This document shows, piece after piece, positions 42,454 to 59,941 of a stretch of DNA of 64,000 bases. The DNA is taken from assembly GCA_965112635.1 (NCBI GenBank), contig OZ218778.1:243666-307665 (forward strand). Reading direction: 5' to 3'. Positions within the stretch are counted from its first letter, which is position 1. Each line of letters starts with the position of its first letter. Source of the DNA: an uncultured bacterium. Its GTDB lineage: Bacteria; Oederibacteriota; Oederibacteriia; Oederibacteriales; Oederibacteriaceae. The translations under genes were made by a program, and so were the position numbers. The notes below the pieces were generated by a model. It had not been told where the DNA came from, ran no database searches, and was given only the letters and a program-made list of their open reading frames with translations.

Positions 42454-42849
42454 CTAGACACAGACTGTTTCCCCAATACCCAGCAGGTCTTTGACCTGAT
42501 CGATAAAACTCCTATTATCTATGGGCTTGGAAATATAGGAGTCAAACCCGGCTGCCCATATCTTTTCCTGTTCGTCTCTCATAGCCAGGGCAGTCAGGGC
42601 CACGACCTTCACGCCCGCGGTCCTTTGCTCACCCCGGATCCGCTTAAAAATGGTAAAGCCGTCCACCTCCGGCAGATTGATATCCAGCAGGACGAGGTCG
42701 GGGACACAGCTTTCCAGCACCCGGAAGCACTCCTCCGCGTTGAACGCCTTCAGCACCCTGAGCCCCTGCATTTCCAGCAGGGCCTCGGCAAGCCTCATAT
42801 TCGCTTCATCATCCTCTACCATCAATACTGTTTTGCTTTGCGTGAACAT
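42454..42849 (-). CDS. single-domain response regulator (receiver only)
   Basis: 131-aa CheY-like receiver (LMVEDDE, LLDINLPEVDG, YISKP). Confidence 0.8.
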   Translation of the reverse strand: MFTQSKTVLMVEDDEANMRLAEALLEMQGLRVLKAFNAEECFRVLESCVPDLVLLDINLPEVDGFTIFKRIRGEQRTAGVKVVALTALAMRDEQEKIWAAGFDSYISKPIDNRSFIDQVKDLLGIGETVCV

Positions 42850-45022
42850 GAACTCCTCCTTGTAGGATCAAAATTCTTTCCGCAGTTTCCGTGCCGCAAA
42901 CTTCTCCCGGTGCCGGCTGCGGCCTGACTGCGCTGAGATCCGGTAAAGCTAAATAAAACCGGGAACCCTTGTCTTTGCCCTTGCTCTCGCACCACAACCG
43001 GCCTTTCTGCATATCCGCTATTTTCTTGGAAAGCGCCAGGCCCAGCCCCGTGCCTCCATACTGGCGGTTGAGGCCGCCCTGGACCTGTTCAAATTCATTA
43101 AATATCCTGAGCTTGTCTTTTTCTTCGATACCGATGCCCGTATCCTCAACGCAGATGCTTATCTCCCCGTTGTTTCCGCCCGCGGTCAGGCGGATCTCCC
43201 CGCCTTCCGGGGTGAATTTGACCGCGTTGGAGAGCAGGTTATTGACCACCTGCTTTATCATGCGTTCATCCGCATAAACAACGCCCGCTTCCCTGGCCAC
43301 CTGCAAAGAAACTTTGATCCTCTTTTTCTGGATCTTATCCGTCACCATCATCAGACTGGACTCCAGGAGCTTTCTGAGATCCACCTCGCTCGCCTCCGAG
43401 GTCACTTTGCCGGTCTCTATCTTGTTCAGGTCCAGAATATCGTTGATCAGGGAAAGCAGATGCTTGCCGCTATCGTAGATATTTAGGGCATACTCGGACT
43501 GCTTAGCGGTCAGCGGCCCGACATCGCCCGACTTCATCATGTCCGAAAACCCGATGATGGCATTAAGGGGAGTTCGTAATTCATGGGACATCGTGGCCAG
43601 GAAAGCCGACTTGGCCCGGTTGGCGGATTCGGCCGTTTCACGGCCCAGATTGGCCTCTTCAATTTTTTTGCTCAAGGTGATATCCCTGACCGTGGCCTGC
43701 AGGAATTGCTTACCCTCCAGTTCCATGCGGGTCAGAAGTACGGTAGCGGGGAAATCCTCGCCGTTTATCCGTTTGTGTGTCCACTCAAATAGGTTATTTC
43801 CCTCCCGCATCGCTTTTTCGATCATTTCCTTGGCCTTTTCGCCGGATGGCCGGCCGTCCGGCTGTTTTTCCGGGGATAACTTACCCGGTCTGTAGGAATT
43901 AAAATCCTTTGAGTCCTTTGCTCCGAACATCCTGACCGTTTCCGGATTTCCTGAGGTGAAATTCCAGTCAGGCGGCTTCAGGGTCATCAGGGCGTCGCTG
44001 GAATATTCAAATAGATAACGGTATCTTTCTTCGCTTTTTCTCAGGGATTCTTCCATGGTTCGGCGGGAGGTGGCGTCACGGAATATCCCCATCATATACT
44101 GCTTGCCTTCCAGTTCGATTTGGTGGGAACTGATATCCGCGTAAATAAGGGAGCCATCCTTTCGTTTAAAAGGCACATCTGTTTCCATCAAAACCTGGTT
44201 TTTGGGGCCTTTATCAAATCTTTCCGCGGCACTCCCAAAAGCCTGGGGAGGATGGATATCCCTGACGCCCATGCGAGTCAATTCCTCATGCCCGTAGGCC
44301 AGGAGTTGGCCCATGCTCTGGTTCGCGTCAAATATTTTCATGGTTTGGGGGTCCACCAGCATGATGCCGTCCGAGGCATGGTCAAAAATGGCCTTGAACT
44401 TGCCTTCCCCCAGGCTCAAGGCTTTGCTGGTCCTGTTCCGCTCGGTGAGGACCATCCTTTGGGCGATAAGAAAACCAATAAAGACGAAGAACCCGACCAC
44501 CCCAAAGACATTGTTCCGGGCCTGGATGTTTTTTTGCATCGTGGAAACGAACAGCGACCTGATAGTGTTCCTCAAGGTGAAAGCATTTTTGAATACTTCA
44601 TCGGCCTGCCGGGGACCCGGTTGTTCCAAAGTCCCTGGGGTGGCTGCGCCATATTGGACCGGCGTATCCTGGATCCACAGGGGGGACATACCGGACAGGG
44701 TGGCCTCAAAGTTTTTTTGGACTTTTTGCAGGAGCGCCTTGTCCTGGGCGCTGGTAAAACTTTTGAGGGCTGTAGCCAGCAGGCCCTCTAAAGTGCTGGT
44801 TTTTTTATCCCACTCGGTTTTTAGTTGCTGGCTGGGATACAGCAGGTACCTGGCCCTCAGGACGATCCTGGCCGAAACCGTGTTGCTCATTTCATCGGCG
44901 AGCTGGAGGTTCCGGCTGGCCAGGGTAATATCCCTCAGGGTCCAGGCCAGGGCCAGGAGCATGAGCACGACCCCTCCCGCATATATCCATCCATTGTCTT
45001 TCATCCATTTATCCATCCTCAT
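42809..45022 (-). CDS. membrane-anchored PAS sensor histidine kinase
   Basis: N-terminal TM, PAS domains, H-box SHELRTPLNAI, HATPase motifs. Confidence 0.8.
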   Translation of the reverse strand: MRMDKWMKDNGWIYAGGVVLMLLALAWTLRDITLASRNLQLADEMSNTVSARIVLRARYLLYPSQQLKTEWDKKTSTLEGLLATALKSFTSAQDKALLQKVQKNFEATLSGMSPLWIQDTPVQYGAATPGTLEQPGPRQADEVFKNAFTLRNTIRSLFVSTMQKNIQARNNVFGVVGFFVFIGFLIAQRMVLTERNRTSKALSLGEGKFKAIFDHASDGIMLVDPQTMKIFDANQSMGQLLAYGHEELTRMGVRDIHPPQAFGSAAERFDKGPKNQVLMETDVPFKRKDGSLIYADISSHQIELEGKQYMMGIFRDATSRRTMEESLRKSEERYRYLFEYSSDALMTLKPPDWNFTSGNPETVRMFGAKDSKDFNSYRPGKLSPEKQPDGRPSGEKAKEMIEKAMREGNNLFEWTHKRINGEDFPATVLLTRMELEGKQFLQATVRDITLSKKIEEANLGRETAESANRAKSAFLATMSHELRTPLNAIIGFSDMMKSGDVGPLTAKQSEYALNIYDSGKHLLSLINDILDLNKIETGKVTSEASEVDLRKLLESSLMMVTDKIQKKRIKVSLQVAREAGVVYADERMIKQVVNNLLSNAVKFTPEGGEIRLTAGGNNGEISICVEDTGIGIEEKDKLRIFNEFEQVQGGLNRQYGGTGLGLALSKKIADMQKGRLWCESKGKDKGSRFYLALPDLSAVRPQPAPGEVCGTETAERILILQGGVHVHAKQNSIDGRG

Positions 45023-45065
45023 ATTCCTGTCCCCCTTCCCAAAATAGCCATGACCCTTTGATGCA

Positions 45066-46631
45066 TCATTGGAATTCTTCCTTACCGGCCATCACCATCT
45101 GGAAGGCCTTGGCCTCTTCCCGGCGGCCTAAAGAAATCAGCGGTTTAACAAAGGAAAAAATGGTCTTTTTTTCACTGGCCGCAGCCAGGGGCAGGCTAAA
45201 ACTTATGGAATTGTCCCCCTTGGAGGGAAAATCCACCTTGATTTCGCCCTGATGCGACTCCACGATCCTCTTGGCTATGGCCAGCCCCAGGCCTATGCCC
45301 GGGATATCGCCCGCGCCCTCTTTGTCCACCTGATAAAAAGTGTCAAAGATCTTCTGCCGTTCCTCGCAGGGTATGCCGGGGCCGTTATCGCCCACAGAGA
45401 ACCTGACCAGGCCTTGCTCCTGCCTGGCCGTGAAAGTGAGCTTGACTATCTTTTGGTCGTTGAATTTCACGGCGTTCTCAATGAGGTTGCTCAACAGTAT
45501 CTCCAGCATCACCGGGCTGAGCCGCAGCCCCACCATGCTGCCCGGCAGGTCGAATGTGTATTCGATCTCTTTATCCGTATGCTTTTTGAGGATGGCCTTC
45601 ACGATTCCCTCTATCCGGTCCATATACACAGAGCCCTCTCCGACACCTTTGCCCCCGTAACGGGCCGCCGTGTCCACATTGACAAAATCCGTTATTTTTT
45701 CCATCACCTTTGAAAACTCGGCCAATCTTTTCATCGTGGCCTCTGCGGAGTCCCTGAGCCGGGTATTTTTCATGGCCACAAAGGCCTCTTTCATCTGGGC
45801 CAAATGGCCCAGGCTCAGGTTCAGGGGAGCATGCACTTTTTGGGCGATAAGGTTGAGAAAATTTGCTTTCCGGTGCTTTTCTCCCCTCTGTTCCGTCACG
45901 TCATGCAAAATGATGACCACGCTGGTTGTCCTGCCCTGGCTGTCCCTGATCACCCTGGAACTGAAACTAAGTATCAGCGGCCAGTAGGTGGGGAACTCGG
46001 GCCGCTCCAGGTCAAAATCAAGGTCGTCAATGACCAGGTCGGTCTTCAGCTCGCCTTCATAATGGACCTTAAAGGTCTGGTGCAGGCGGTCCAGCCAGTC
46101 CGGGGACGGCTCCACAAAGCTCAGCAGCTCCCGGGCCAGCTGGTTGGACCGGACGATCCTCAGGTCCGCGTCGCAGACGATCAACCCTTCACTGGCCCGC
46201 TCAATGACCTTTTCCAGCTTTTTCTTTTCATCCACCCGGGAGCGTTCATTGTGGAGCTGGAGGAGCGTCTTGACCTTGGCCAGCACTTCATTGATATCAA
46301 AAGGCTTGGAAATAAAATCATCGCATCCCGCCTCTATCCCGGAGATCCGGGCGCTGGTTTCGGCCAGCGCCGTGATCATCACCACGGGCAGCGTCTTAGT
46401 GCTTTCCGCGGCCCGGATCTTCCGCGTCACCTCGAAACCATCCATATCCGGCATCATCACGTCCAGCAGGACCAGGTCTATTTTTTCATAGGTGAGTTTC
46501 CTTAGGGCCTGCCCCCCGTTTTCCGCGGTGACGACCTCGTAACCCTTGGACTTGAACAAAGTGGCCAGGAGCTCCACATTAAGGGGCTCGTCGTCCACCA
46601 CCAAAATCGTGGTTTTTTCAACTATATTCAT
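45066..46631 (-). CDS. receiver-PAS-histidine-kinase-like fusion protein
   Basis: N-terminal receiver (ILVVDDEP, LLDVMMPDMDG), central PAS, C-terminal HATPase-like domain; ATG 46631 overlaps upstream stop (ATGA). Confidence 0.75.
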   Translation of the reverse strand: MNIVEKTTILVVDDEPLNVELLATLFKSKGYEVVTAENGGQALRKLTYEKIDLVLLDVMMPDMDGFEVTRKIRAAESTKTLPVVMITALAETSARISGIEAGCDDFISKPFDINEVLAKVKTLLQLHNERSRVDEKKKLEKVIERASEGLIVCDADLRIVRSNQLARELLSFVEPSPDWLDRLHQTFKVHYEGELKTDLVIDDLDFDLERPEFPTYWPLILSFSSRVIRDSQGRTTSVVIILHDVTEQRGEKHRKANFLNLIAQKVHAPLNLSLGHLAQMKEAFVAMKNTRLRDSAEATMKRLAEFSKVMEKITDFVNVDTAARYGGKGVGEGSVYMDRIEGIVKAILKKHTDKEIEYTFDLPGSMVGLRLSPVMLEILLSNLIENAVKFNDQKIVKLTFTARQEQGLVRFSVGDNGPGIPCEERQKIFDTFYQVDKEGAGDIPGIGLGLAIAKRIVESHQGEIKVDFPSKGDNSISFSLPLAAASEKKTIFSFVKPLISLGRREEAKAFQMVMAGKEEFQ

Positions 46632-48103
46632 TGCTTTTCCTTCTCCTGACAGCAAGTTGCCTCAAAAATACCGGCGAGCATCCGGCCTTTCTCGTCGGCA
46701 TCTCCCGGCTGGTAGCTTTTGCCCGATACCCCGGACCGGCCCACGGGCAGATGGATATAAAAAATGGTCCCCTGTTCCTGGGATGTTTTATAAAAGATAT
46801 GACCCTTGTGCGCTTCCACGATCTCCCGGCAGATGGACAGCCCCAGTCCCGCGGCCCGCTCCGCGGTTTTGGTGGTAAAGAACGGCTCAAATATCCTGCC
46901 GCGTATCTCCTCCGCGATGCCCGGACCCCTGTCCTTGACGCTGATTTGGACCTTGTCCTCGCCCAGATGGTCGGCCGCCAGCGAGGTCCTTATTTCTATG
47001 ATGCCATCCTTTTGAACGAGCGAGATGGCCTGGGCCGCGTTGTGGATGAGATTAAGGAAGACCTGCTGCATCTTCAGCTCATCGCAGCGGACCGGGGGCA
47101 GGTCCAAGGCCGGTTCAAAGACCAGTTTGATGCCGTGCATGGTCAGGATATTCTGGACGATCTGGATGCTCCGCCTCAGGCAAAGGTTGATGTCCAATGT
47201 CTCCAGGCCGGGCTCATTGTTCACGGACAGGCTGATGGTCCGCTTGACCATCACCTGGCACTGGGTCCCTTCGCGGATGATGTTGTCCGCGGCTAGCATC
47301 CTGCCCTCCGGGCCCAGGTATTCCTGCTGGAATTTTTCCGCCTCCCGGACCATCAGGGTCAGGGAATCATTGACGCTCTCGGCCATGCCGTGCAGTATTT
47401 CCCCCAGGGTGGCCATGCGCTGGGTGCGGTCCAGCCGGACCTGCGCCATCTTCACTTCCCTGGTCAGCTTCTCGCTGAGCTGGCGGCTGTTCTCGGACTG
47501 CTTCCTGAACCCGCGTTCCTGCTCCATCAGGAAGCTGTAGAAGATGGTCAGGACAAAGATAAAGGGGATGCGTATCAAAAAGGTCGTCTCCATCAGGCTC
47601 TGGCTCATGATGCCCGTGGAATGCAGGACCATCAGCGCGTACACGCCCGAGACGACCCCAGCGATCAGGAGGTTTTCCAGCAGGTTGCGCCCAATGGCCA
47701 CCATAAAGATAAGGAGGAAATAGGCCAGGTAAAGGTCGGTATCAAATTTACGGAGCAGGAGGATGGCCAGGGTGATGACAGCCGTGTCAAAAATGAACAG
47801 CACCAGGTTTTGCCAGGCCTGGTCAAAACGCGCCAGCCTGGAAACAGTCACCCAGATATTGGACGCGGCGTAGCAGGTCAGCAGAAGGGCCAGTAGAACC
47901 AAGTTCCAAAAATGCATTCCCCGGCCGGCGTAGATCATAAAAAGGGTGAGGGTCAGGAGCACCATCCAGCGGAGCATGAGGATGGCCCGCTTGGTACCCT
48001 GGCTGCCTTCCTGCTTCACGGTCATGCCTCGGAACAACTTAAGGGCCTGTTCACGGGCTCCATACAGGACACCCTTCAGCCGACTTGCCAAAACCTGTTC
48101 CAT
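46628..48103 (-). CDS. sensor histidine kinase with polytopic membrane N-terminal domain
   Basis: ~5 TM helices then HisKA/HATPase (NLIHNAAQA, DRGPGI, GLGLSI). Confidence 0.8.
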   Translation of the reverse strand: MEQVLASRLKGVLYGAREQALKLFRGMTVKQEGSQGTKRAILMLRWMVLLTLTLFMIYAGRGMHFWNLVLLALLLTCYAASNIWVTVSRLARFDQAWQNLVLFIFDTAVITLAILLLRKFDTDLYLAYFLLIFMVAIGRNLLENLLIAGVVSGVYALMVLHSTGIMSQSLMETTFLIRIPFIFVLTIFYSFLMEQERGFRKQSENSRQLSEKLTREVKMAQVRLDRTQRMATLGEILHGMAESVNDSLTLMVREAEKFQQEYLGPEGRMLAADNIIREGTQCQVMVKRTISLSVNNEPGLETLDINLCLRRSIQIVQNILTMHGIKLVFEPALDLPPVRCDELKMQQVFLNLIHNAAQAISLVQKDGIIEIRTSLAADHLGEDKVQISVKDRGPGIAEEIRGRIFEPFFTTKTAERAAGLGLSICREIVEAHKGHIFYKTSQEQGTIFYIHLPVGRSGVSGKSYQPGDADEKGRMLAGIFEATCCQEKEKQ

Positions 48104-48369
48104 ACTGCCTCCCCCTTCGCATGCGAATGGTTAACAACATAGTCAACACTATCATTTGCGGGATAAAGGCAGAAGGAGCCAGGGCTGTAAATACATTGAT
48201 TTTTAAAGGGTAATTAGCTGTCCTGGAGCAGGAGATAATTGGAGTATTGTTGAGAAAAAGCTATTTCATACCTCATTTCAGCAAGTACCCCTTTTTGTCC
48301 ACTTGATGAAATGAGCCTACCACCCCATTTTCTCTGTTCAATGTTGTTTCTCTAGTTCAGGGTTCTGAC

Positions 48370-49950
48370 TGGGGAACGGGGAAGGGGGATTGTTAAACAG
48401 CTGGTTGCTCAGGCATACAGGGCTTTGTGGACCGCGGCGAGCATGGTTTCGGACTCGTAGGGCTTGCCCAGGAACCGGTAACCCAGCTTGTCCAATTCGG
48501 GCAGTTCTATCCTGTCGTCCAGATAGCCGCTGCAGACCAGCACCTTGATGCCGGGGTTCTGCCTGCTGACCTCCTCCGCGAGCTGTCTGCCGTCCATGCC
48601 TGGCAGGATCATATCCGTAAAAAGCAGGTTGAATTTTTTCTTTTCTTCTTTAAAAGAGATGAGGGCCTCCTCTGCGTTCTGTGCGGGAAACACAATATAA
48701 CCATGCTTCTGGAGGATGACCGTGCTCAGGGCCAGGTTTTCCGGCTGGTCTTCCACCAGCAATATCCTTTCTCCGGTCCCCCGGCCGTACTCCAGCGCTA
48801 TTTTTTTTGACTCCCTGGGTTCCTCGCTCTTTCTGGTGTCCATAGGGAGCCACACCTTGAACTCCGTGCCCTGACCCGGCTGGCTGGACACATTGATCCA
48901 CCCGTTATGCTGTTTCACGATGCCATAGGTGACCGACAGCCCCAGTCCCGTGCCCTTGCCACGGGTCTTGGTGGTAAAAAAGGGCTCAAATATTTTTGCC
49001 ATGGTTATCGGCTCCATACCCTTCCCGTTGTCTTTGACCGTCAGGCACACGAACTCGCCAACCCGGGCTTCGGATATTTCCAGGGCCTGGCTCTCGCTTA
49101 GAGTGCAGTTGCAGGTCTGGATGAGCAATTGGCCGCCCTGGGTTATGGCATCCCGGGCATTGACGCAAAGGTTCATCAGGACCTGTTCCATCTGGGTCTG
49201 GTCGGCGTAGATGGCCTGGAGGCCCTTATCCAGCTCCAGTTTCAAAGTAACCTTTTCACCCACTGCCTCTTTGAGCATCTTTTCCATATCCTGGACCACT
49301 AGATTCAAGGAAAGGGACTTGGGGGACAGGTTTTGTTTGCGGCTGAACGCCAGCAGCTGACCGGTCAGGGCAGCGGCTTTTTTACCCGCGCCCTTTACTT
49401 CCTCCAGATAGGATTGGACAGCATCCCGGTCATCTTTTTTGATGAGGGCCAGGTCAGAGTAACCGATAATGACATTAAGCAGGTTGTTGAAATCATGGGC
49501 AATGCCTCCGGCCATCTCCCCGATAGAGGCCAATTTTTGGGCCTGCATCAGGCCCTGTTTCAGGAGTTTAAATTCCGTCACATTGGAGGCTATGGTGGAG
49601 AAACCGATGGCCTGGCCATTTTGTCCTTGAAGCGGGGTTATGGTCAAAGCCACCTGGATGGTCTCCCCGTTCTTGCGCAGGTGCTCGGTCTCAAAATGGG
49701 CAATTTTATGGCCTGCGTTGAGTTGCTCTGTAAGCATCCGCATCTCTTCTTTGCGTTCCGCGGGAACCAGTTGTTCCGCAGACATTCCAATGGCTTCCGC
49801 TGGGGAATAACCATAAATCTTTTCCGCACCCCTGTTCCAGCTCGTGATGAGGTTCGCCAAATCCCTGCTGAATATCGCGTTATCCGAGGATTCCACGATC
49901 GTCGCCAGCAGGCGGTCTTTTTCTTCCGCTTTCCGGCTCTCGGTGATGTC
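48370..49950. repeat. paralogous segment (3' part of hybrid kinase plus ~40 bp of 3' flank) duplicated at ~53130-54710; bounds approximate
   Basis: long near-identical protein stretches ([61 protein letters not shown]) and shared downstream GGGAAGGGGGATTGTTAAACAGCTGG. Confidence 0.6.
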
Positions 49951-51081
49951 CCTGGAAACGGCGAGTAAACCTATGATCTTTTTGTGTTCCGCCCCTTCCC
50001 AGATGGGGGTTTTGACTTCCCAGAACACCCGGCCATTCTCCGAGACGACCTCCTCGGTGGTCTGTTCGCCCTGTAAAACCCGGGCCTCAATGGCCTTGAT
50101 CTGCTCGGCCGCGCCAGTGGGCATCAGTTCGGAGTCCTGACGGCCTATCAATCCCTCCAGGGAACAGCGGAACAGCTCCAGGGTCGCCTTGTTGCCGTAA
50201 ACATACCGGGACTGGGCGTCCTTGAAATAGACATAAACGGGTATCTGGTCCATGATCTCCCGGAAACGCTGGGCTTCGTCCAGAGCCCTGAGCAGTTTCA
50301 ACTCCTCCTGCTTGCGTTCGGTGATGTCCTCGGATATGCCCAGCAAATATTTCGTGACCCCATCCTCCCCCCGAATGCAAACCTTGCGGGTATGAAGAAT
50401 CCGTTGGCCTTTCTTGGCTGTCAGGATAAATTCTTCCGGGATATCCAGCATCCCCGCTTCGCCATCCAGCACCTCACGGTCTTTGCTCATGAAATTGGCC
50501 GCCTGTTCAGGAGGGAAAAGGTCCAGGTTATTCCTGCCCAGCAGGTCTTTGCGGTCATATCCCAGGAGTTCCTCGCCCGCGCGGTTGAATATGACGAAAC
50601 GCAGGTCTTTGGACTCTTTGAGGAATATCATGAGCGGAATATTTTCTACGACGGATGCGAAAAGGCTTTTCGATTCCCTCAACTCCCTCTCCGACCGCTT
50701 GCGCTCTATGGCATATCTCAATGAACGGATCAGCAGGGAACCGTCAAATTTCCCTTTAACCAGATAATCTTCCGCGCCCGTATGAAGGGAATCCACAACT
50801 AGTGCTTCATCATCCAGCCCGGTGATCACCACCACCGCGGTCCCGGGGGCATTGCCCAGGATGCTTTTCAGCGTAGTGATCCCCTGACTGTCCGGCAAAT
50901 TAAGGTCTAGTATGAGGCCGTCAAACGAACTCTTGCGTAACTGATCGACCGCGTTATCCAGCGTGCCTACAGTTGATATTTCATACCGGCCGACACCGGC
51001 TTTTTTGACCATTTCCTGGATGAGCCGAGCATCGCCCGGATTGTCCTCGACCAATAATAGTTTTATCTTTGGCTCCTCCAT
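48409..51081 (-). CDS. hybrid sensor histidine kinase (REC, 3x PAS, HisKA, HATPase, REC)
   Basis: 890-aa ORF; N-terminal receiver [11 protein letters not shown]-box [11 protein letters not shown]-terminal receiver [10 protein letters not shown]. Confidence 0.85.
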   Translation of the reverse strand: MEEPKIKLLLVEDNPGDARLIQEMVKKAGVGRYEISTVGTLDNAVDQLRKSSFDGLILDLNLPDSQGITTLKSILGNAPGTAVVVITGLDDEALVVDSLHTGAEDYLVKGKFDGSLLIRSLRYAIERKRSERELRESKSLFASVVENIPLMIFLKESKDLRFVIFNRAGEELLGYDRKDLLGRNNLDLFPPEQAANFMSKDREVLDGEAGMLDIPEEFILTAKKGQRILHTRKVCIRGEDGVTKYLLGISEDITERKQEELKLLRALDEAQRFREIMDQIPVYVYFKDAQSRYVYGNKATLELFRCSLEGLIGRQDSELMPTGAAEQIKAIEARVLQGEQTTEEVVSENGRVFWEVKTPIWEGAEHKKIIGLLAVSRDITESRKAEEKDRLLATIVESSDNAIFSRDLANLITSWNRGAEKIYGYSPAEAIGMSAEQLVPAERKEEMRMLTEQLNAGHKIAHFETEHLRKNGETIQVALTITPLQGQNGQAIGFSTIASNVTEFKLLKQGLMQAQKLASIGEMAGGIAHDFNNLLNVIIGYSDLALIKKDDRDAVQSYLEEVKGAGKKAAALTGQLLAFSRKQNLSPKSLSLNLVVQDMEKMLKEAVGEKVTLKLELDKGLQAIYADQTQMEQVLMNLCVNARDAITQGGQLLIQTCNCTLSESQALEISEARVGEFVCLTVKDNGKGMEPITMAKIFEPFFTTKTRGKGTGLGLSVTYGIVKQHNGWINVSSQPGQGTEFKVWLPMDTRKSEEPRESKKIALEYGRGTGERILLVEDQPENLALSTVILQKHGYIVFPAQNAEEALISFKEEKKKFNLLFTDMILPGMDGRQLAEEVSRQNPGIKVLVCSGYLDDRIELPELDKLGYRFLGKPYESETMLAAVHKALYA

Positions 51082-51094
51082 TTTTTCCTGCGTC

Positions 51095-51544
51095 CTATCC
51101 TTGGAGAGGAAGCTTAACCACGGTCAGCCAGAAATCCTCTATAATTTTAACCACTTTATAAAACTGATTAAAATCCAAAGGTTTGGTGATATAGGCATTG
51201 GCATGAAGATTGTAGCTTTTTATAACATCCTCGTCCGCCTTGGAAACGGTCAAAACCACCACGGGAATGCTTTTCAAGGCCTCATCGGATTTGACCTCTT
51301 TTAGAACTTCCCTGCCGTTCTTCTTGGGGAGATTCAGGTCAAGCAAGACAATGTCCGGGCGGGATAATTTTTCGTATTTTCCCTGCTTCCTAAGATAAGC
51401 CATAGCTTCCACCCCATCCCCTACAACATTCAAAGCATTCCTTATCTTGGCATCCTTGAACGCCTCCTGGATAAGCCGAATATCACCCGGATTGTCCTCC
51501 ACCAGCAGTATTTCTATCGGCTTTCCTATATTATTCATTTCCAT
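51095..51544 (-). CDS. single-domain response regulator of the phytochrome-associated (Rcp-like) CheY type
   Basis: 149-aa receiver ([27 protein letters not shown]). Confidence 0.85.
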
Positions 51545-51559: not shown

Positions 51560-52655
51560 TTAATCTTTTAAAGTGAAATAAAAAACTGTGCCCTTTCCAT
51601 ATTCGGACTCATACCATATCTTCCCCCCATTACGCTCCACGATACGCTTGCAAACAGCCAGGCCCACCCCGTTACCGGGGTACTTGACCCCTGCCAACCG
51701 CTGAAATAGGGAAAAAACCCTATCCTTATACTGGGGTTCTATTCCGATACCATTGTCCTTGATGGAAAAAACAACCTCTTTTCCCTTTTTCCCCGCAGAA
51801 AGATGAACACACGGTGCCTGTTCTCCGCAAAACTTGATGGAGTTGGCAATGAGATTCTGCAAAACCTGAAGAAGCTGGGAGGGGTCGGCCATGACCGCTG
51901 GCAAAGGATCTGTGGGTAATGACCGCTTTATTCTCTAATATGGCCAATTTCAGATTGGCCAGAGCGCCTTTAAGGACCTCCTCGGTATCCACCAGCTCCA
52001 GGGGTTTAGCCTGGGACTCTACCCGTGAGAATAATAACAGACCGTCAATGAGTCCCTGCATGCGGGTAGCTCCGTCTACGGCGAAATTGATGAATTCATC
52101 AGCATCCTGGTCCAGTTTGCCTTTATAGCGTTGCTCTATCAATTGAAGATAACTTACGACCATCCGGAGCGGCTCCTGCAGGTCGTGGGAGGCGATATTG
52201 GCGAACTGCTGGAGGTCTTCATTGCTGCTTTTTAGTTTTAAGGCATATTTCCTAATCTCCTCTTCCTCTTTGTGCCTGGTGATGTCCTCGATGGCCAGAA
52301 GAATGATATGCTCTTTTCCTAATGCTCTCTGAATTTGCCTTGCATTCAAAAGTAAGATGCGCCGGCCAATGGTGTCAAAATCGTGCTCCACCTCAAAATT
52401 GTCAAAGGAGGTCTTTTGAGGAAGGATGTTTTCCAGCAGTTCCCTTAGCTGGGGAATATTCCACTGTTTGTTACCCAGGTCATAGATTAACTGCCCCACC
52501 GTCTCTGCCGGGTTTACCTTAAAAAATTCATAGAAGGAACGGCTGGCGGAGATGACCCTGAGGTCCTGGTCCAGAACGACCAAGGGTTCGCGAATGGTAT
52601 TGATAATGCTTTCGGCGTATTCCTGGGATTCTACTGCTGTTTTTTCGCTAAACAT
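51560..52655 (-). pseudogene. PAS sensor histidine kinase, frame broken near 51905-51925 between HisKA and HATPase
   Basis: ORF 51726-52655 carries PAS and H-box (SHDLQEPLR); ORF 51560-51904 carries N-box/HATPase (QVLQNLIANSIKF, DNGIGI) in another frame. Confidence 0.65.
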
Positions 52656-52712: not shown

Positions 52713-52895
52713 TTACCTATGGAGTGAAAATACTACTGAGCTTGTTTTTGCAGGAGTTCGGATTGTAGGATGGTGATGTCTGTGGGTGGTGCGGCTCGAG
52801 GTGAAATTATTCTTGCAGGTATGGTTGAGTCCCTCAAAAATACTTCCCTTGAGGCTGGGACATTTCATATCACAGGTACAGTTATCTTTGGTCAT
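52713..52895 (-). pseudogene. internally deleted remnant of an FNR-like regulator gene (paralog of 56524-57219)
   Basis: N-terminal 27 codons (MTKDNCTCDMKCPSLKGSIFEGLNHTC) match the intact paralog; last ~12 codons in another frame (ILQSELLQKQAQ, stop at 52734) match its C-terminus. Confidence 0.55.
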
Positions 52896-52901
52896 TTTCT
52901 A

Positions 52902-53129: not shown

Positions 53130-54710
53130 TTTCTGTAAAGGGGGAAGGGGGATTGTTAAACAGCTGGCTGCTCAGGAATACAGGGCTTTTTGGACCGCCG
53201 CCAGCATGGTTTCGGATTCGTAAGGTTTGGCTAGGAACTGGAAACCTTGGTTGGTGAGTTCGTTTTGCTCCACGATCTTATCCAGATAACCGCTGGTCAC
53301 CAGCACCCGGATGTTAGGATTCTCTTTTCGGATTTCCTTGATAAGTGCATTCCCATCCATGCCGGGCAGAATGATGTCGGTAAAAAGCAATTTAAACCCT
53401 TTTTTCTCTTCCTTGAACGCCCTGAGGGCGTCTTCTGCATTCTCAGCGGGAAAAACAGTATAACCTTGTTCTTCGAGTATCTTGGTGGCCAGGGCCAGAT
53501 TGTCCGGCTGGTCCTCCACCAAAAGTATTTTTTCACCAGCGCCCCGGCCGTGCTCCAGGGCTATTTTCTTTTGTAGCTTGGGCTCCTGGTCTTTGCGTTC
53601 ATCCCTGGGGAACCATATCCTGAACTCTGTGCCTTTCCCAGGCTGACTGGACACATTGATCCACCCGTTATGCTGTTTCACGATGCCATAGGTGACGGAC
53701 AGGCCCAGGCCCGTGCCCTTGCCCCTGCTCTTGGTGGTAAAAAAGGGGTCAAATATTTTGGTCAGGGTCATGAAATTCATTCCTATACCGTTGTCCTTGA
53801 CTGTCAGGACTATAAAATCCCCGGGACGGGCTTCACGGATAACCTGCGCTTCTAACTGGCCAAGGGACACTGCCTGGGTCTTGATAAGCAGTTGGCCTCC
53901 CTGAGGCATGGCGTCGCGGGCGTTGACGCACAGGTTCATCAGGACCTGCCCTAACTGGTTCTGGTCCGCATATATTCTTTCTTGTCCTTTACTCAAGGCC
54001 AGCGTAAGCACGACGTGTTCACCCACCGCCTCTTTGAGTATTTTTTCCATACCCAGGACCACTTCATTCAGGGATAAGGACTGGAGGGACTGGTTCTGTT
54101 TGCGGCTGAAGGCCAGCAATTGTCCGGTCAGGGAGGCGGCTTTTATGCCCGCGCCTTTTATCTCCTCCAGGTAGTTCCTGGCGGCAGTCCAGTCATTGGC
54201 TTTCATCAGGGCCAAGTCAGAATAGCCGATGATGACGTTGAGCAGGTTGTTGAAATCATGGGCAATGCCTCCGGCCAATTCCCCGACAGAGGCCATTTTC
54301 TGGGTCTGGACCAAATCGCTCTGCAGGCGCCGGAATTCGGTGATATCGGTGGCGATGGTGGACCCGCCGACGACCTGGCCGTTCTTGTCGTAGATAGGCG
54401 AAAGGGCCAGCATCACCTGGACCCGGGTCCCATTTTTATGCAGGCGCTCTGTCTCAAAGCGCAGTATGGGTTGGCCAAGGTTAAGTTTTTTGGTGATCTC
54501 CAGCATCTCTTCCCTGCGTTCCGGAGGGACCAATTTTTCCGCGGACATGCCGATAGCCTCCTGGACGGAATACCCATATATCTTTTCCGCGCCCTTGTTC
54601 CAGCTCAAAATTATTTGATGATGGTCCCTGCTGAATATCGCGTCACCTGAGGATTCCGCGATGGTGGCCAGCAAGCGGTTTTTTTGTTCGGCTTCCCGGC
54701 GCTGGGTAAT
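53130..54710. repeat. second copy of the paralogous hybrid-kinase segment (see 48370-49950); bounds approximate
   Basis: same shared protein stretches and 3' flank. Confidence 0.6.
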
Positions 54711-56507
54711 ATCTTGGACATAGTTCACAAAATAAAGGATAACTCCCGTGGAGGGCTTGCGCACTGCAGCCACAGACACATTGGCCCAAATAATCCGGCC
54801 GTCCTTGCGTAAATACCGCTTTTCTAGGATGGCATTGTCAGCCTCACCCTCCGTCATGCTCCTCATGGCTTTTAACCCTATTTCATAATCTTCCGGATGA
54901 GTGATGCTGTTAAAGGTTTTGCCTAAAAGCTCATTCTCACCAAACCCCAGCATTTCGTTCATGGCCCGGTTGACCCTGAGATACCGGCCTTCAATATCCA
55001 CTAGGCTGACCCCGACCACGGCGTTTTCAAAAGAGGTCCTGAAAAGCTCCTCGCTCTCGGCCAAGGCCTTTTCAGCTTGCCGGCGTTCAGTCACATCGCT
55101 CATAAAATTGAGCGTAGCCAGCCGGCCCTGCCATTCGATCCTGACGGCGTTTATCTGCACCCAGCGCAGCTGGCCCGAAGCGGTCAGGATGCGGAACTCA
55201 TATATTTTTTCCAGGTCCTCCCCAGCCAGCCGTCTCAGGTGGTTTGCCGCGACCATGGCCCGGTCTTCCGGATAGATGAAATCAGTGAAAGGATGGCGGG
55301 ATATCTCTTCGGGTGGATATCCCAATTCCCGGACTGTGGCCTTGTTCACGAAAACCAGTTTGTTGTCCTGGGCCACCATGATCATTTCCTGGGAATTTTC
55401 CACGACCTGGCGGTATCTTTTCTCGCTCTCCCGCAGTGCTTCTGAAGCTTTCCTGAACTCGGTAATATCCCTTGCCGAGCTGAGCGTCCCGGTGATGCGC
55501 CCCTCCTCATCATGGACAAGGGAGTTATGAAAAGCCAATAAACGCCTGTCTCCTTGTTTGGTGACCACAAAATTCTCAAAATATTCAACTGGCTTGATAG
55601 CGCCGGAGATGATCTGGTCAAAAACAGAATGGACAGCCTGATACTCCTCGGGAGTAACGCAGGTCTTGAACCAGTCCTTGCCCAGGAGCTCTCCCTCCTG
55701 GTAACCGAGGAGTTCGTGACCCTTACGGTTGAGGAGCACGACCTGGCCCTGGGTGTCCAGCACCACCATCAATACCTGGGCAACTTCAAGATATTCGGAG
55801 GCTTTTCTTCTTTCGGCCCTTAAATACGCCACATCCTTCTTGCGCAGGGTCACATCGTTGGCCATGGATATATTTAACTTTCGCCCATCCGCGGTCCGGC
55901 CCAAGGCAGTAGATTGAAATTCCCAAACCCGGGTCTTCCCGCTTTTCGTCTTGACTGTGAACTCTCCCTCATTGTACCGGATGCCATCGTCCAGAGAAAA
56001 AAACAGATTTCTCCGGGACTGGACTTTGTCCTTTTTCAGCCCATAGGCAAGCTCAAGCCAAGCATCTAGTGTAGGTATGTCCGCCCGGCTATATCCGGTC
56101 AGTTCTTCCCAAACCTGGTTGACCCGGATGACCTCGCCATCCTCCGCGTAGATCATGATGGGAAACGGTGACAGCTGTATCACTTTTTCCCGCTGTTCCA
56201 GGCTGAGCCTCTCGGCTTTTTCTATGTGCTGGAGCAAAACGACCACGATAAACATGGAAAGGGATAAGGCAAAACGCCTCCCGGTCTCCAGAGGGTCAAT
56301 CGTGCTGGGAACATGGTTTACGAGCATCTGATACAGGGGGGAAAACGCAGGTAAAAGATCAAAACAAGGGCCAAACCCATGAAGGACCAGGAGACTTTCC
56401 TTTTGGACTTGGGCAGGCCCAGGAGGACCATCACCATGGCTATGAGGGCAATGATGGCCGAGGCCACATTGACCACGGTCAAAAACATGGCTGTCCCTCC
56501 TTTTCAA
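53172..56507 (-). CDS. hybrid multi-PAS sensor histidine kinase with C-terminal receiver; N-terminus uncertain
   Basis: multiple PAS, H-box [10 protein letters not shown], HATPase, receiver [10 protein letters not shown]; a 56-aa 2-TM ORF with strong RBS (56318-56488) lies in a neighbouring frame across a C6 run. Confidence 0.8.
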
Positions 56508-56523
56508 TGTATGGTGACGATGA

Positions 56524-57219
56524 TTACTGGGCTTCCTTTTGCAGGAGTTCGGACTGCAGGACTGTGATCCTTTTGCCTACCAGGGAAATGATCTTTTTTT
56601 TCTCCAGTACTTTCAGGGCCCGGATGGCGGTCTCCTGGGCCGTGTCCGCCAGCTCGGCCAGCTCGGTCCGGGAAAGCTGGATGTTGAGCGAACCGTCCTT
56701 GGCCGGAGCATAGTCCCGGGCCAGCTTGCACAGCACCTCGGCCACCCGGTTCTTGACCGGCTTTTGGACCGCGCTTTCCAGCCGGGACAGGGTGTCGCCC
56801 ACCTCGGCTCCCATCCGGCTCATGATGTTCTCTCCCAGCCGGGGATCCAGCCCCAAGGCCGCGAATAAAATGGAGCGTTCAATGAAGCAGACCTGGGTTT
56901 CCTCCAGGGTTTCCGCAGAGGTGAAATTGACCTTGCCCGACATCAGCGCGGACACACCCAGCGCATCACACGGTCCGGCGATCTGGACGATCTGCTCGCG
57001 GTCCAGGCGGCCGGTTTTGTAGAGTTTTACTTTTCCGGAACGGATGTGATAAATGCCGTAGGGTTTATTGCCCTCATAAAAAAGGTTTTGTTTGGGTTTG
57101 TAGGTGTTGGTGGTGCGGCCCTTGGCGATATAATCCAGGCATTCATGGTTAAGCCCCTCGAATATACTTCCCTTGTAGCCGGGACATTTGGCGTCACAGG
57201 TCCAGTTTTGATTGACCAT
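56524..57219 (-). CDS. Crp/Fnr-family regulator with FNR-like cysteine pattern
   Basis: cNMP-binding-like fold plus C-terminal HTH (LSRTELAELADTAQETAIRALK); N-terminal C8-x3-C12-x14-C27 plus internal Cys (GPCDALG); AAGGAAG RBS before ATG 57219. Confidence 0.8.
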   Translation of the reverse strand: MVNQNWTCDAKCPGYKGSIFEGLNHECLDYIAKGRTTNTYKPKQNLFYEGNKPYGIYHIRSGKVKLYKTGRLDREQIVQIAGPCDALGVSALMSGKVNFTSAETLEETQVCFIERSILFAALGLDPRLGENIMSRMGAEVGDTLSRLESAVQKPVKNRVAEVLCKLARDYAPAKDGSLNIQLSRTELAELADTAQETAIRALKVLEKKKIISLVGKRITVLQSELLQKEAQ

Positions 57220-57302
57220 CCACGCTTCCTTTCTCCCCTGCCTCAATGTCTACATATAAAGTATAGTCCTTATAACCTGATTTCTGACAATGAAATGGCT
57301 GG

Positions 57303-57698
57303 CTAATTCGATCCGGGCAGGAGGTCATTGAGGGTCTTGAGAAACTGAGTTATATCCATGGGTTTAGAGATATAGCCGTCAAAGGAGTACGATTGGACCT
57401 CTTCCCGGTAATGGGGATTGCCCATGCCTGTGAAACTGACGACCTTGACGGCTTTGAAAGCCTCATTCTGCCGGATCATTTTGAAAATCTCAAATCCGTC
57501 AATGTCAGGAAGCCCGATATCCAGCAGGACAATATGTGGAACTATGGTGTCCAGGATTTCTATGGCCTCCTCACCTGTCGCGGCCTGATGGACCTGCCAG
57601 CCGTCCATTTTTAGGATCTCCACGGATATCTTCAGATTGGTCGGATGGTCCTCTACGACCAAAATGATCTTGGTTTTTACCTTTTCGCCATTAGCCAA
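57303..57698 (-). CDS. single-domain response regulator (receiver only)
   Basis: 131-aa CheY-like receiver (ILVVEDHPTN, LLDIGLPDIDG, YISKP). Confidence 0.8.
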   Translation of the reverse strand: MANGEKVKTKIILVVEDHPTNLKISVEILKMDGWQVHQAATGEEAIEILDTIVPHIVLLDIGLPDIDGFEIFKMIRQNEAFKAVKVVSFTGMGNPHYREEVQSYSFDGYISKPMDITQFLKTLNDLLPGSN

Positions 57699-57866
57699 TG
57701 TTTACTCCCCGTTGCCATGGATTGGTTTCTCGAATTTTTGTACCACTAATCTACCTTATAATTGGAAATCCCGTCAAGTTCCAGTTCAGTTGGATTGATG
57801 AGATATCGGGCAGGGCAATCCTTTTGATAATGATTCTTTCCCAACCGCCAGGGCCATCACAAATTT

Positions 57867-58883
57867 TCAGTCAGCACTCTGGTCGCCTATCTTGTGCTTG
57901 GCTATCTCGCAAAAACACCGCGTATGATTGGCGCACTGCGGGTCATACACCATGGCTTTTTTCAGATTAGAGACGGCGGCCTTGTAAAGCTCCGGGTCGC
58001 CGGTGAGGATACCCAAGCTCATCTGGGTGAGGCCGCAAAGACGATACGCCGCCACGTATTGCGGATCAAGCTCAATGGCTTTGTTAAAACAGGAGACGGC
58101 TCCCTTGATGTCATTGATCTGCCATAAATAAAATCCCCTATTATAATATTTCTCCGCCTCTCCCACGCTGATGCCGTCATTGGGGATCTTATAGCCCATG
58201 AGTTCCACATCTTTCTGGAGATGGATCAGGGAAATAACGACCACCGGATTGGATGAGTCTATTTTGGCCAGAGCCTCCGAAGCGCAATGCCGGACCTGCT
58301 GATCCGGGTCACTGAGCAGCTGGAACAGGGCAGGCATGGCGTCTTTATCAGAGGGATCGATGTTTCCCAGGACACCCGCGGCACAGCAGCGGACATTCCC
58401 ATCCGAGTCCTTGAGAAGATCCAGGAGCGGCGAGAGGATTTCTTTGGTTAGCGGTTTGATCTGTTGCAGGGCTTCCGCGGCCTTGGAACGGACCTCGGCA
58501 TCCTGGTCCTTGAGCATTCCCAGAAGAACAGGCACGTCTTTTTCACCGACTTTATTCCAATCCAAGTTCCCGGGTTTAGCGCTTGGAGCTACGGATTCCG
58601 CGGACTTTAAGGACCGCAGATCATTTTCTAGTTTTATTTTATCCGCCCTGACAGCCTCCGCAACCCGTTGTTTAAGTTCTGTATCTATACTTACTTTATC
58701 CTGCTCCATGGCCTTCAGATCCGCCTTGAGCGTGGCCTGGTCCTGCGCGATGGTTAGTTCGAGCTGATCGACCATGGGGTTGGCTGCCACAGGCAGGGTA
58801 GCCATTATGGTCATAAGCACGGCGATGCAAAAAAATACTATCAGTGCAGGGCATGAGTTTTTTGGGACAGCCAAGTTTTCCAA
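57867..58883 (-). CDS. secreted/membrane-anchored HEAT-repeat plus TPR-repeat protein
   Basis: three HEAT-like repeats (DAEVRSKAAEAL, DGNVRCCAAGVL, DQQVRHCASEAL) then TPR-like region; start uncertain (TTG 58883 with GGAGG, or GTG 58931). Confidence 0.6.
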   Translation of the reverse strand: MENLAVPKNSCPALIVFFCIAVLMTIMATLPVAANPMVDQLELTIAQDQATLKADLKAMEQDKVSIDTELKQRVAEAVRADKIKLENDLRSLKSAESVAPSAKPGNLDWNKVGEKDVPVLLGMLKDQDAEVRSKAAEALQQIKPLTKEILSPLLDLLKDSDGNVRCCAAGVLGNIDPSDKDAMPALFQLLSDPDQQVRHCASEALAKIDSSNPVVVISLIHLQKDVELMGYKIPNDGISVGEAEKYYNRGFYLWQINDIKGAVSCFNKAIELDPQYVAAYRLCGLTQMSLGILTGDPELYKAAVSNLKKAMVYDPQCANHTRCFCEIAKHKIGDQSAD

Positions 58884-59056
58884 GGTCGTACACCTCCGCT
58901 TTCCTCTAGTGCAAGTGTACCCCTGGACCAAAAAATCCCTTATGACGCAGGAAGACTGGCCGATTGATATTTGGATACGGAAAAGCTGACGCAGGTCAAT
59001 AGATGAAGGGTGTGTTTTTCAGGATTTTAAGCAATTTTCCGTAAAAAACTTTGGGG

Positions 59057-59941
59057 TTAGGGCCTTTTGGAGCCCCGGGCTAGCATCAGGGAAGGATTAA
59101 AATTCTCGTAAAGAGCAATATTTTTGCCTGATTTTTTAGCCTGGGCCACCAGTTGGCTGGCCTGCCTGAAGAGGTCCTGGCTTTCCGGAACATCCTCTCC
59201 CACGCTGACCAAACCGCAGCTGAAAGTGATCTTCCAGTTGTTGTATTCCATGGCCTTGTTCAGGTTCTGGTGGACCCTGTTCCAAAATTCTTTGGCGCCG
59301 GTTCCATCGATATTCACCAGCAGGACCCCGAACTCGTCCCCGCCCAGCCGGGCCACCTCGTCGCTTTCCCTGATATGCACTTTCAAAGTTTCAGCGACTT
59401 TGGCCAGCACCTCGTCGCCTGCCCTATGGCCCAGTGTGTGGTTTAAGTCCGCGAAATCATCCAGGTCAATGACCGCCAAGGTGTAGGGCGTATTTTTGTG
59501 CTGGCGTCTGTTCTCCTCGCGGTCCATGGCCTCATACAATCCCTGCCGGTTCAGGGTTTGGGTCAGATGGTCGGTCTTGGTAAGGACGATCTCGCGTTCC
59601 AGGGTTCCGCGGATGCGGCCGAGAAGGAGTGCGATAAGGGTGAAAACGGCGAGGTCCACTCCGCAATTCCAATAAGCAATGGTTTGTTGGGAATAGAGTT
59701 GATGGATGAAGTTCGTCCACACCGCAATGACTGCGCCCAAGGCCGTGCCAGCCCACCATCCCACGGTCCAGGTGGCCAACCCTACTGGAAAAATATAGAA
59801 AAGGAACAGGCTCGCTTCTTTGCCGGTAAGGTCATCTACATAAGTGATGATCAGGATGAGGAAAAGGCAGATGGCCAGGCGCATGGCATAGGGCAGTCTT
59901 TCCATCCAGCCGAACAGATTTTTTGGGTCAAAGTTTTGCAA
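59057..59941 (-). CDS. membrane-anchored diguanylate cyclase (GGDEF domain)
   Basis: N-terminal TM helices; GGDEF motif in RLGGDEFGVLL. Confidence 0.8.
   Translation of the reverse strand: MQNFDPKNLFGWMERLPYAMRLAICLFLILIITYVDDLTGKEASLFLFYIFPVGLATWTVGWWAGTALGAVIAVWTNFIHQLYSQQTIAYWNCGVDLAVFTLIALLLGRIRGTLEREIVLTKTDHLTQTLNRQGLYEAMDREENRRQHKNTPYTLAVIDLDDFADLNHTLGHRAGDEVLAKVAETLKVHIRESDEVARLGGDEFGVLLVNIDGTGAKEFWNRVHQNLNKAMEYNNWKITFSCGLVSVGEDVPESQDLFRQASQLVAQAKKSGKNIALYENFNPSLMLARGSKRP

Follow-up and report, generated by a model that had tools for sequence, protein, structure and literature searches.

Contig OZ218778.1 (NCBI GenBank assembly GCA_965112635.1) of an uncultured bacterium of the Oederibacteriaceae contains, within a stretch of 64,000 nucleotides analyzed here at its full length and referred to as the window (contig positions 243,666 to 307,665), a run of genes at window positions 42454-59941 devoted largely to signal transduction (Table 1). 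The interpretation of this run towards which we lean, if only somewhat, is that it consists of about five signaling units that accreted side by side, in part through local duplication, and that two kinase-like proteins of the fifth unit, of 491 and 521 amino acids (aa), which lack the phospho-acceptor histidine, are regulatory pseudokinases that function in a DivL-like manner. What carries this interpretation is the domain composition of the proteins, the loss of the histidine from two of them, the retention of the receiver and ATP-binding residues, the tight coupling of the genes and the recurrence elsewhere of the gene order pseudokinase, kinase, receiver. What we infer from it is how the fifth unit works: in which direction phosphate is transferred, which proteins interact physically and what the output is.

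Table 1. Genes of the run, in order of increasing window coordinate. ORF, open reading frame; L001, a metagenome contig nearly identical to the window over 21.5 kb.
Position	Strand	Product	Basis and remarks
42454..42849	-	DivK-like stand-alone receiver REC131a, 131 aa	Pfam Response_reg, E=2e-23
42809..45022	-	Canonical sensor kinase, 737 aa: transmembrane helix, ~130-aa periplasmic loop, transmembrane helix, 2 PAS, HisKA, HATPase	Pfam
45066..46631	-	Kinase-like protein, 521 aa: REC, PAS-like, DHp, CA; Gln264 at the phospho-acceptor position	Pfam Response_reg; HATPase_c, E=3e-21
46628..48103	-	Membrane kinase-like protein, 491 aa: ~6 transmembrane helices, DHp, CA; Glu at the phospho-acceptor position; first gene of the operon	Pfam HATPase_c, E=1e-25; 305-bp gap upstream
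48409..51081	-	Cytoplasmic hybrid kinase, 890 aa: REC, 3 PAS, HisKA, HATPase, REC	Pfam
51095..51544	-	Rcp-type stand-alone receiver REC149, 149 aa	Pfam Response_reg; PDB sequence search
51560..52655	-	Cytoplasmic PAS-HisKA-HATPase kinase, 364 aa when intact	Pfam on both ORF halves
52734..52883	-	Remnant of a second crp gene	blastn; inside the 516-bp "intergenic" gap
53172..56488	-	Hybrid sensor kinase, 1105 aa when intact: 3 transmembrane helices, 5 PAS, HisKA, HATPase, REC	Pfam; L001 translation
56524..57219	-	Crp/Fnr-family transcription regulator, 231 aa	Pfam cNMP_binding and HTH_Crp_2; same 231-aa product in L001
57303..57698	-	Stand-alone receiver REC131b, first gene of the probable unit REC-crp-hybrid kinase	Pfam Response_reg, E=3e-24; 168-bp gap upstream
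57867..58931	-	HEAT-repeat and TPR protein with N-terminal hydrophobic signal or anchor	Pfam HEAT_2, HEAT and TPR_11
59057..59941	-	Membrane-anchored GGDEF protein: 3-4 predicted transmembrane helices, then GGDEF; no receiver	Pfam, E=2e-33; hydropathy

The four-gene operon and its proteins without acceptor histidine

The four genes at the downstream end of the run are closely packed. The start codon of the 521-aa gene overlaps the stop codon of the preceding 491-aa gene (ATGA, 46628-46631), the 737-aa gene begins 43 bp after the 521-aa gene, and the start of the REC131a gene overlaps the end of the 737-aa kinase gene by 41 bp (42809-42849); both overlaps had been pointed out in an earlier note made from this DNA. 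The 737-aa kinase has transmembrane helices at residues 11-36 and 168-194 and an intact H-box ('MSHELRTPLN'). Among solved structures, REC131a is closest to DivK (E=6e-23) and next closest to PleD, and in the alignment the acidic pocket, the phospho-accepting aspartate, the threonine and the lysine are all present.

Pfam HisKA was not detected in the 491-aa or the 521-aa protein. When all six kinase cores of the run are aligned, the acceptor position is occupied by histidine in the 737-, 890-, 1105- and 364-aa proteins, by glutamine in the 521-aa protein and by glutamate in the 491-aa protein, and each of the six retains intact N, G1, F and G2 boxes. Four proteins thus combine the H-box histidine with a complete CA domain (the 364- and 1105-aa genes being intact only in L001), and the remaining two have the ATP-binding boxes of a canonical HisKA kinase and not its acceptor histidine. 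Within the operon, the 737-aa kinase is therefore the only protein predicted to be able to autophosphorylate on a canonical histidine.

The receiver domain of the 521-aa protein is closest, among solved structures, to the first receiver of PleD (E=1e-35). In an AlphaFold2 model of this protein (pLDDT 77), the receiver (residues 8-120) is followed by a long helix (113-145), a PAS-like domain (149-244) and the DHp and CA domains, with the DHp helices at residues 246-284 and 290-325 and Q264 in the first of them; the best fold matches of the model are WalK, VicK, YF1 and LvrB (8vc9). The H-box of the 491-aa protein, 'LGEILHGMAESVNDSL', aligns to 'LG.L.AGVAHEINNPL' of its homologs, with 'GMAESVNDSL' in place of 'GVAHEINNPL'. 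An exhaustive HMMER search places this protein in a family of 400-475-aa proteins that share the six-helix transmembrane N-terminus and mostly carry 'AHE', the exceptions being the closest full-length relative (P0248, 34% identity), which has glutamine, and five others with threonine, alanine or phenylalanine.

The histidine-less subfamily and its genomic context

Most of the proteins nearest in sequence to the 521-aa protein likewise lack the acceptor histidine: among the 27 closest (46-54% identity), 24 have D, S, A, Q, R, Y, E, K or W at this position, and the adjacent 'K-L-R-x-P-L' is retained. Distant relatives (at most 43% identity) carry 'SHKLRTP' in all 14 cases shown, and 'LIAQKVHAPL' of the 521-aa protein stands against 'LISHKLRTPL' at the site of the loss. 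Invariant in the histidine-less subfamily are the receiver residues D13, D57, T87 and K109 as well as the ATP-binding residues N382, N386, D415, G417, G419, F429 and G445-L450. A scan of metagenome contigs with the family alignment yielded only the receiver domain among the matches listed and added no histidine-less members, and a literature search found no description of a histidine-less Rec-kinase subfamily.

Another histidine of the 521-aa protein, His243 ('LHDVT', at the PAS/DHp junction, window positions ~45903-45905), is nearly invariant in the close subfamily, and R, D, N, T or K occupies its position in the distant histidine-containing relatives. It lies exactly 21 residues (three heptads) ahead of the lost acceptor position. 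As a replacement acceptor it is an unlikely candidate, given this distance and its location in the last PAS β-strand of the model; moreover, the three subfamily members with a canonical histidine have it as well.

The genomic surroundings differ between the two groups of relatives. For six of the seven histidine-less relatives examined, the next two genes downstream encode a PAS-HisKA-HATPase kinase (396-551 aa) and a receiver of 118-155 aa, at spacings of -8 to +31 bp, and the genes that flank these three-gene modules are unrelated from case to case. Among the eight histidine-containing relatives with at least 33% identity and enough downstream sequence, none is followed by such a kinase-receiver pair, and directly upstream of six of them lie genes for a kinase, a receiver or both, which is the LvrA-LvrB order (Fisher test for His-less vs His-containing context, ~0.0014, a value that ignores phylogenetic non-independence). 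The arrangement of the whole run was not seen in other organisms; the three-gene module related to 45066-46631 and its neighbors alone recurs. Judged by sequence identity, the window shares with these modules the arrangement and the pseudokinase and not the partner proteins, and it adds the 491-aa protein.

The surroundings of individual members extend this picture. The seventh histidine-less relative (contig L006) is preceded by an RsbU_N-kinase-REC protein and partner-switching genes: positions 5183-10461 of that contig encode two STAS proteins, an RsbW-like GHKL protein, a SpoIIE phosphatase and the RsbU_N-HisKA-HATPase-REC kinase. Through this contig the family is connected with a partner-switching cassette, reminiscent of the anti-sigma link of LvrB-LvrC. 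In addition, two of the six modules directly adjoin a gene for a PAS-GGDEF protein of ~728 aa (L007, 6711-8897; L169, 3562-5751), a weak hint of a link between the modules and cyclic diguanylate (c-di-GMP) signaling.

Proposed mechanism and alternative explanations

In the proposed scheme, unit 1 would be a membrane diguanylate cyclase with direct sensing and unit 2 an exported HEAT/TPR protein. Unit 3 would comprise a receiver, the Crp/Fnr regulator and a membrane multi-PAS hybrid kinase, unit 4 a PAS kinase, the Rcp-type receiver and a cytoplasmic multi-PAS hybrid kinase, and unit 5 the translationally coupled four-gene operon 48103-42454. In this last unit, the 737-aa kinase, as sole phosphodonor of the operon, would sense a periplasmic and/or PAS-bound signal and pass phosphate to the DivK-like receiver and to the PleD-like receiver domain of the 521-aa protein. 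The 491-aa (Glu) and 521-aa (Gln) proteins, with folded DHp and ATP-binding domains, would serve as regulatory pseudokinases that read the phosphorylation of a receiver, whether the DivK-like one or one of their own, and tune the 737-aa kinase or another partner. This control would be exerted via DHp-DHp or DHp-REC contacts, in the way that DivL reads phosphorylated DivK (DivK~P) to control CckA.

A bolder proposal, which we regard as tentative and rather doubtful, is that the histidine-less Rec-PAS-DHp-CA proteins constitute an undescribed and widespread family of receiver-fused pseudokinases acting as phosphorylation-sensing regulators of the downstream kinase, in the window as part of a complex of three kinase folds with one catalytic histidine. 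The protein would have swapped its role from second kinase of a cascade (as LvrB is to LvrA) to regulator of a downstream kinase, thereby fusing the logic of DivK and DivL, and in the window the module would have gained a periplasmic-sensing kinase and, as a second pseudokinase, a polytopic one.

Several observations weigh against the reading of unit 5 as an operon of DivL-like pseudokinases within a series of accreted units. The kinases of the modules elsewhere are 75-85% identical to one another and 34-45% to the core of the 737-aa kinase, their receivers are 60-72% identical to one another and 28-34% to REC131a, and it is the 364-aa kinase of the neighboring unit that matches the module kinases better (41-45% identity, full length); after this pairwise comparison, the 737-aa kinase and REC131a were rejected as orthologs of the module kinase and receiver. 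The transcription units are probable units delimited by spacing alone, and promoter- and terminator-like sites occur at chance level (15 vs 13.4 and 28 vs 24.5, respectively, in shuffled sequence). Strict conservation of the ATP-binding motifs is unexpected for a purely scaffolding pseudokinase, and histidines near the lost site offer possible acceptors (H233 of the 491-aa protein, four residues before it, and H267 of the 521-aa protein, three after it). Because the pseudokinase model leaves the conserved ATP pocket unexplained, the rival idea that these proteins still phosphorylate something stays alive. They could do so on the displaced H233 or H267, in trans on the DHp histidine of the 737-aa kinase, or on serine or threonine like the GHKL anti-sigma kinases, and in favor of such activity are the N, G1, F and G2 motifs, conserved in both proteins and invariant across the histidine-less subfamily, the STAS, RsbW-like and SpoIIE genes adjoining the L006 relative, and the displaced same-helix histidine proposed for a Caulobacter hybrid kinase without a canonical one (PMC11481889). 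However, H233 and H267 are not conserved (relatives of the 521-aa protein have R almost throughout, those of the 491-aa protein A, G or S), the replacement of the histidine by nine different residues looks like relaxed selection and not like a new acceptor, and the partner kinase has a complete catalytic domain of its own; retained kinase activity is in our judgment unlikely, if still to be reckoned with. Far less credible is the idea that the histidine-less proteins, the frameshifted kinases and the crp remnant are all pseudogenes or errors in a degenerating cluster of paralogs, with no special function. The crp remnant does represent real decay, and two frameshifts separate the window from L001. 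Yet zero substitutions with two single-base indels in 21.5 kb is the signature of consensus errors, the histidine-less proteins are full-length with every other functional motif intact, and in the 521-aa type the histidine-less state is that of the great majority of relatives, from many metagenomes and in a conserved gene context.

The earlier note had instead read all components of the run as one branched multi-step phosphorelay with GGDEF-dependent c-di-GMP synthesis and FNR-type transcription control as outputs, which the present analysis makes improbable. Ten signaling genes do cluster on the same strand, three proteins have a receiver fused to a kinase core, as do proteins that feed relays in other systems, and the two modules with a neighboring PAS-GGDEF gene (L007, L169) fit such a reading. 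Against it, no protein of the run has a Pfam match to HPt (PF01627) at E<=0.01, and the gaps contain no candidate ORF for an unannotated HPt and no room for one, although the genome could carry an HPt gene at another location. Pfam detects no receiver domain in the GGDEF or the Crp/Fnr protein, and hence there is no domain through which a phosphoryl group could reach either. All three stand-alone receivers are single-domain proteins, and Pfam finds no terminal response regulator with an output domain in the run. The layout is likewise at odds with a single relay: judged by its gaps of 149, 125, 168, 516 and 305 bp, the run consists of about five probable transcription units, part of it is a patchwork produced by duplication with a decayed crp copy, and it does not recur as a whole. 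The eight window proteins that were looked up, the tested proteins of the run among them, are all singletons at 90% identity. Functional cross-talk among the units is compatible with the sequence and may occur.

Relation to known signaling systems

The closest precedent for the pseudokinase reading is the Caulobacter crescentus circuit DivJ/PleC-DivK/PleD-DivL, in which DivL is a pseudokinase that reads DivK~P (PMC4211667, PMC5361649). The operon of the window resembles it in combining a PAS kinase with a DivK-like single-domain receiver and a PleD-like receiver domain, in the presence of kinase-like proteins without acceptor histidine, and in the proposed reading of a phosphorylated receiver by a DHp domain. 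It differs in the residue at the acceptor site, which, set against DivL by description, is Tyr in DivL and Gln or Glu here (and hypervariable in the family), in the fusion of a receiver to the pseudokinase, in the tandem occurrence of two pseudokinases, one of them polytopic, in the full conservation of the ATP-binding motifs, and in the encoding of all components in one operon. Moreover, no CckA-ChpT-CtrA branch is present nearby, and the host is apparently not an alphaproteobacterium.

The 521-aa protein also has the architecture of the Rec-controlled histidine kinases, whose prototype is LvrB of Leptospira (PMC13269768) and which include PhcR and CheS3 (PMC5863495, PMC3868531), i.e., an N-terminal phosphorylatable receiver, a helical linker, DHp and CA. 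The histidine-containing relatives of the 521-aa protein further recall LvrA-LvrB in having a kinase directly upstream. In kinases of the LvrB type, phosphorylation of the receiver triggers autophosphorylation on a DHp histidine, H161 in LvrB. At this site no histidine is present in the 521-aa protein or in 24 of its 27 close relatives; in addition, a PAS-like domain is inserted between its receiver and DHp, and its partner kinase is encoded downstream and not upstream. Other histidine pseudokinases of bacteria are PsmA of Streptomyces (PMC12963549) and CCNA_03265 of Caulobacter (PMC11481889), which likewise bear a receiver and lack the catalytic histidine, and for which a role through interaction, rather than through phosphotransfer, is known or proposed. 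According to their descriptions, these two differ from the proteins studied here in having the receiver at the C-terminus, other partners (e.g., DivIVA for PsmA) and no conserved kinase-receiver operon.

The histidine-less Rec-kinase subfamily and its conserved neighborhood are, then, a variant of pseudokinases and of Rec-controlled kinases, both of which are known kinds of protein. To our knowledge, bacterial histidine pseudokinases are represented by few well-studied cases (DivL, PsmA), and a structural mechanism for Rec-controlled kinases has become available only recently, through LvrB. The subfamily brings together a histidine site that is free to vary, a strictly conserved receiver and ATP pocket, and a kinase-receiver pair almost always immediately downstream. 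A subfamily of this kind would offer a compact and testable system for studying how a kinase fold may be turned into a phosphorylation sensor and why ATP binding is kept, with the histidine-retaining relatives as built-in comparators.

Gene content of the run and local duplication

The ORF listing and the Pfam scans agree in essentials with the gene content given in the earlier note. All genes from 42454 to 59941 lie on the minus strand in an unbroken series, ten of the 12 encode two-component, c-di-GMP or Crp/Fnr products, in line with the description of nearly all of them as signaling components, and the three hybrid kinases, the three stand-alone receivers, the HEAT/TPR protein and the GGDEF protein are all found as described. 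The count of five sensor kinases has to be corrected to six kinase-family genes. The same gene models were obtained when genes were called independently on the identical contig L001. The minus-strand series extends beyond 59941 with an efflux pair (MacB, 60091-62250; HlyD, 62111-63121), and its downstream limit is a convergent gene for an FGGY sugar kinase (40911-42428). A terminator-like hairpin (59999-59986) lies between the GGDEF gene and MacB, such sites being no more frequent than expected by chance.

Nine two-component genes among 12 consecutive genes have a binomial probability of ~4e-12, computed with an assumed background of 3% two-component genes. The density of signaling genes is thus far above chance, and local duplication explains part of the excess. 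Dense, duplication-driven clusters of two-component genes are common in environmental bacteria; the run as a whole is ordinary in this respect and requires no new kind of pathway. Its GC content (0.485-0.57) is inside the range of the whole window and therefore gives no sign of a mobile or foreign island.

The duplication is most evident in the two large hybrid kinases. A blastn self-comparison aligns 48375-49950 with 53138-54713 at 74% DNA identity over 1595 bp, running 34 bp beyond the stop codon. The 890- and 1105-aa proteins are 53% identical over 789 aa, with greater identity in the C-terminal half (68% between the C-terminal receivers and 71% between the kinase cores), and the H-box of the 1105-aa kinase ('IAHDFNN') is intact. 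Beside the second hybrid lies the remnant of another crp gene, of which 52781-52883 corresponds to 57105-57207 of the intact crp at 76% identity and 52734-52777 to 56525-56568 at 84% (blastn); it keeps the 5' 103 bp and the 3' 44 bp and has lost ~536 bp internally. Small ORFs of the remnant still spell the Cys-bearing Crp N-terminus ('TCDMKCPSLKGSIFEGLNHTC') and the Crp C-terminus ('...ITILQSELLQKQAQ', with the 'LQSELLQK' of the intact protein). From the paralogous hybrids and the adjacent crp remnant, we conclude that a crp-hybrid-kinase unit was, by sequence comparison, duplicated in place, after which one of the two crp copies decayed and the sensor halves of the kinase paralogs diverged. 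The two 131-aa receivers (42454-42849 and 57303-57698) are 42% identical. On the minus strand at 52713-52895, the remnant includes an ATG-started ORF of 60 codons with the three N-terminal cysteines (TCDMKC...NHTC), followed by unrelated sequence.

The GGDEF, HEAT/TPR, Crp/Fnr and Rcp-type proteins

The product of 59057-59941 scores 117 bits against NCBIfam TIGR00254 (cutoff 37), and its residues 188-204, 'RESDEVARLGGDEF', contain an intact GGDEF motif with an RxxD I-site five residues upstream; by these motifs it is predicted to be an active GGDEF diguanylate cyclase. Its TTG start codon is uncertain. Residues 20-54 of the HEAT/TPR protein form a hydrophobic segment, Pfam detects no signaling domain in this protein, and its matches to the PBS-lyase HEAT repeats of the NblB/CpcE type are weak, far under the NCBIfam cutoffs.

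The regulator called FNR-like in the earlier note does belong to the Crp/Fnr family, and it is not FNR proper: it scores 59.6 bits against the NCBIfam model NF008365 for Fnr (cutoff 228), and the nearest solved structures are those of generic Crp/Fnr proteins (2gau; M. tuberculosis Crp). Its sequence is that of a generic member of the family. FNR is an oxygen-sensing [4Fe-4S] regulator whose cluster is ligated by four cysteines, three of them N-terminal and one in the β-roll. With FNR of E. coli and Aliivibrio fischeri the regulator of the run shares the fold family (cNMP_binding and HTH_Crp_2) and a Cys-bearing N-terminal extension (C8, C12, C27), the three cysteines of which are also kept in the crp remnant. 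The remaining cysteines are at positions 84, 111 and 164, and C111 was aligned by eye with C122 of FNR, to which it may correspond. The N-terminal cysteines are, however, spaced C-x3-C-x14-C, unlike those of FNR, which are spaced C-x2-C-x5-C, and solved FNR aligns to the protein only from residue 41 on. Redox or Fe-S sensing through Cys 8, 12, 27 and 111 may nevertheless be possible.

The Rcp-like receiver mentioned in the earlier note is confirmed as such, since REC149 matches in PDB 5te9 (E=1.5e-48) and, over its full length, RcpA (E=7.9e-47) and Rcp1 (E=8e-43). Its gene starts 15 bp after that of the 364-aa kinase and ends 13 bp before that of the 890-aa hybrid. This arrangement is reminiscent of the cyanobacterial pairs Cph1-Rcp1 and CphA-RcpA, in that a receiver close to Rcp1/RcpA directly follows a kinase, and the intact H-box of the 364-aa kinase, 'ASHDLQEPL', is one that we take to resemble the H-box of Cph1. 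Unlike Cph1 and CphA, this kinase has a single PAS domain and no GAF/PHY bilin-binding module, and there is therefore no evidence of light sensing. Its PAS domain ('EYAESIINTIREPL...DLGNKQWNIPQLRELLE') is 58-66% identical to the N-terminal PAS of the module kinases in the unrelated metagenome contigs L168, L169 and L170, much nearer to them than the rest of the protein, which points to a highly conserved PAS type.

Sequence quality

The 491-aa protein has exact matches on two contigs, namely L001 (ENA metagenome, 387 kb) and an NCBI contig of 2.88 Mb. A comparison of the window with L001 across 21.5 kb shows zero substitutions and exactly two single-base indels, each of which breaks a kinase gene in the window. 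An extra A at 51911 splits the gene of the 364-aa kinase into ORFs 51726-52655 and 51560-51904 in an alignment otherwise 100% identical. A C-run at 56336-56341, C6 in the window and C7 in L001, removes the true 5' end of the large hybrid kinase gene and makes the TTG-started ORF 53172-56507 an artefact. In L001, this gene has an ATG equivalent to 56488, preceded by AGGAGG, and its product has three N-terminal transmembrane helices. Because the indels come without substitutions and one is in a homopolymer, both are probably consensus errors, suggestive of long-read sequencing, in the source assembly of the window. Real pseudogenization as the main explanation of the frameshifts was rejected on the same comparison.

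Other genes of the window

An Rfam scan of the whole window returned zero matches, and thus no riboswitch or leader in the gaps, and a search for tRNA genes found none. Products encoded outside the run include HypD/HypE, ferredoxin-type proteins, a TonB-dependent receptor, an outer-membrane efflux protein and glycosidases, a gene content that probably reflects an anaerobic Gram-negative bacterium. The hydrogenase maturation genes hypE and hypD lie on the minus strand at 6430-8670, and the top named relatives of HypD, only 72-76% identical, are spread over Verrucomicrobia, Abditibacteriales, Acidobacteriota and NC10, which fits a lineage that has been sampled poorly.

Two genes of the URO-D family (methyltransferase-like; 24135-25364 and 29439-30485, minus strand) flank a ZnuA/ABC-3 metal-uptake cassette, and between them there is also a 365-aa ORF without Pfam match (27132-28229). 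A 340-aa ORF on the minus strand (37371-38393) has no Pfam family at E<=1e-5, and the same domain-less 340-aa product is called in L001. At 18920-21010 (minus strand), the window encodes an additional PAS-HisKA-HATPase-REC hybrid kinase with ~30% identity to the two hybrids of the run over 490 aa, and the genome therefore has further members of this hybrid-kinase type.

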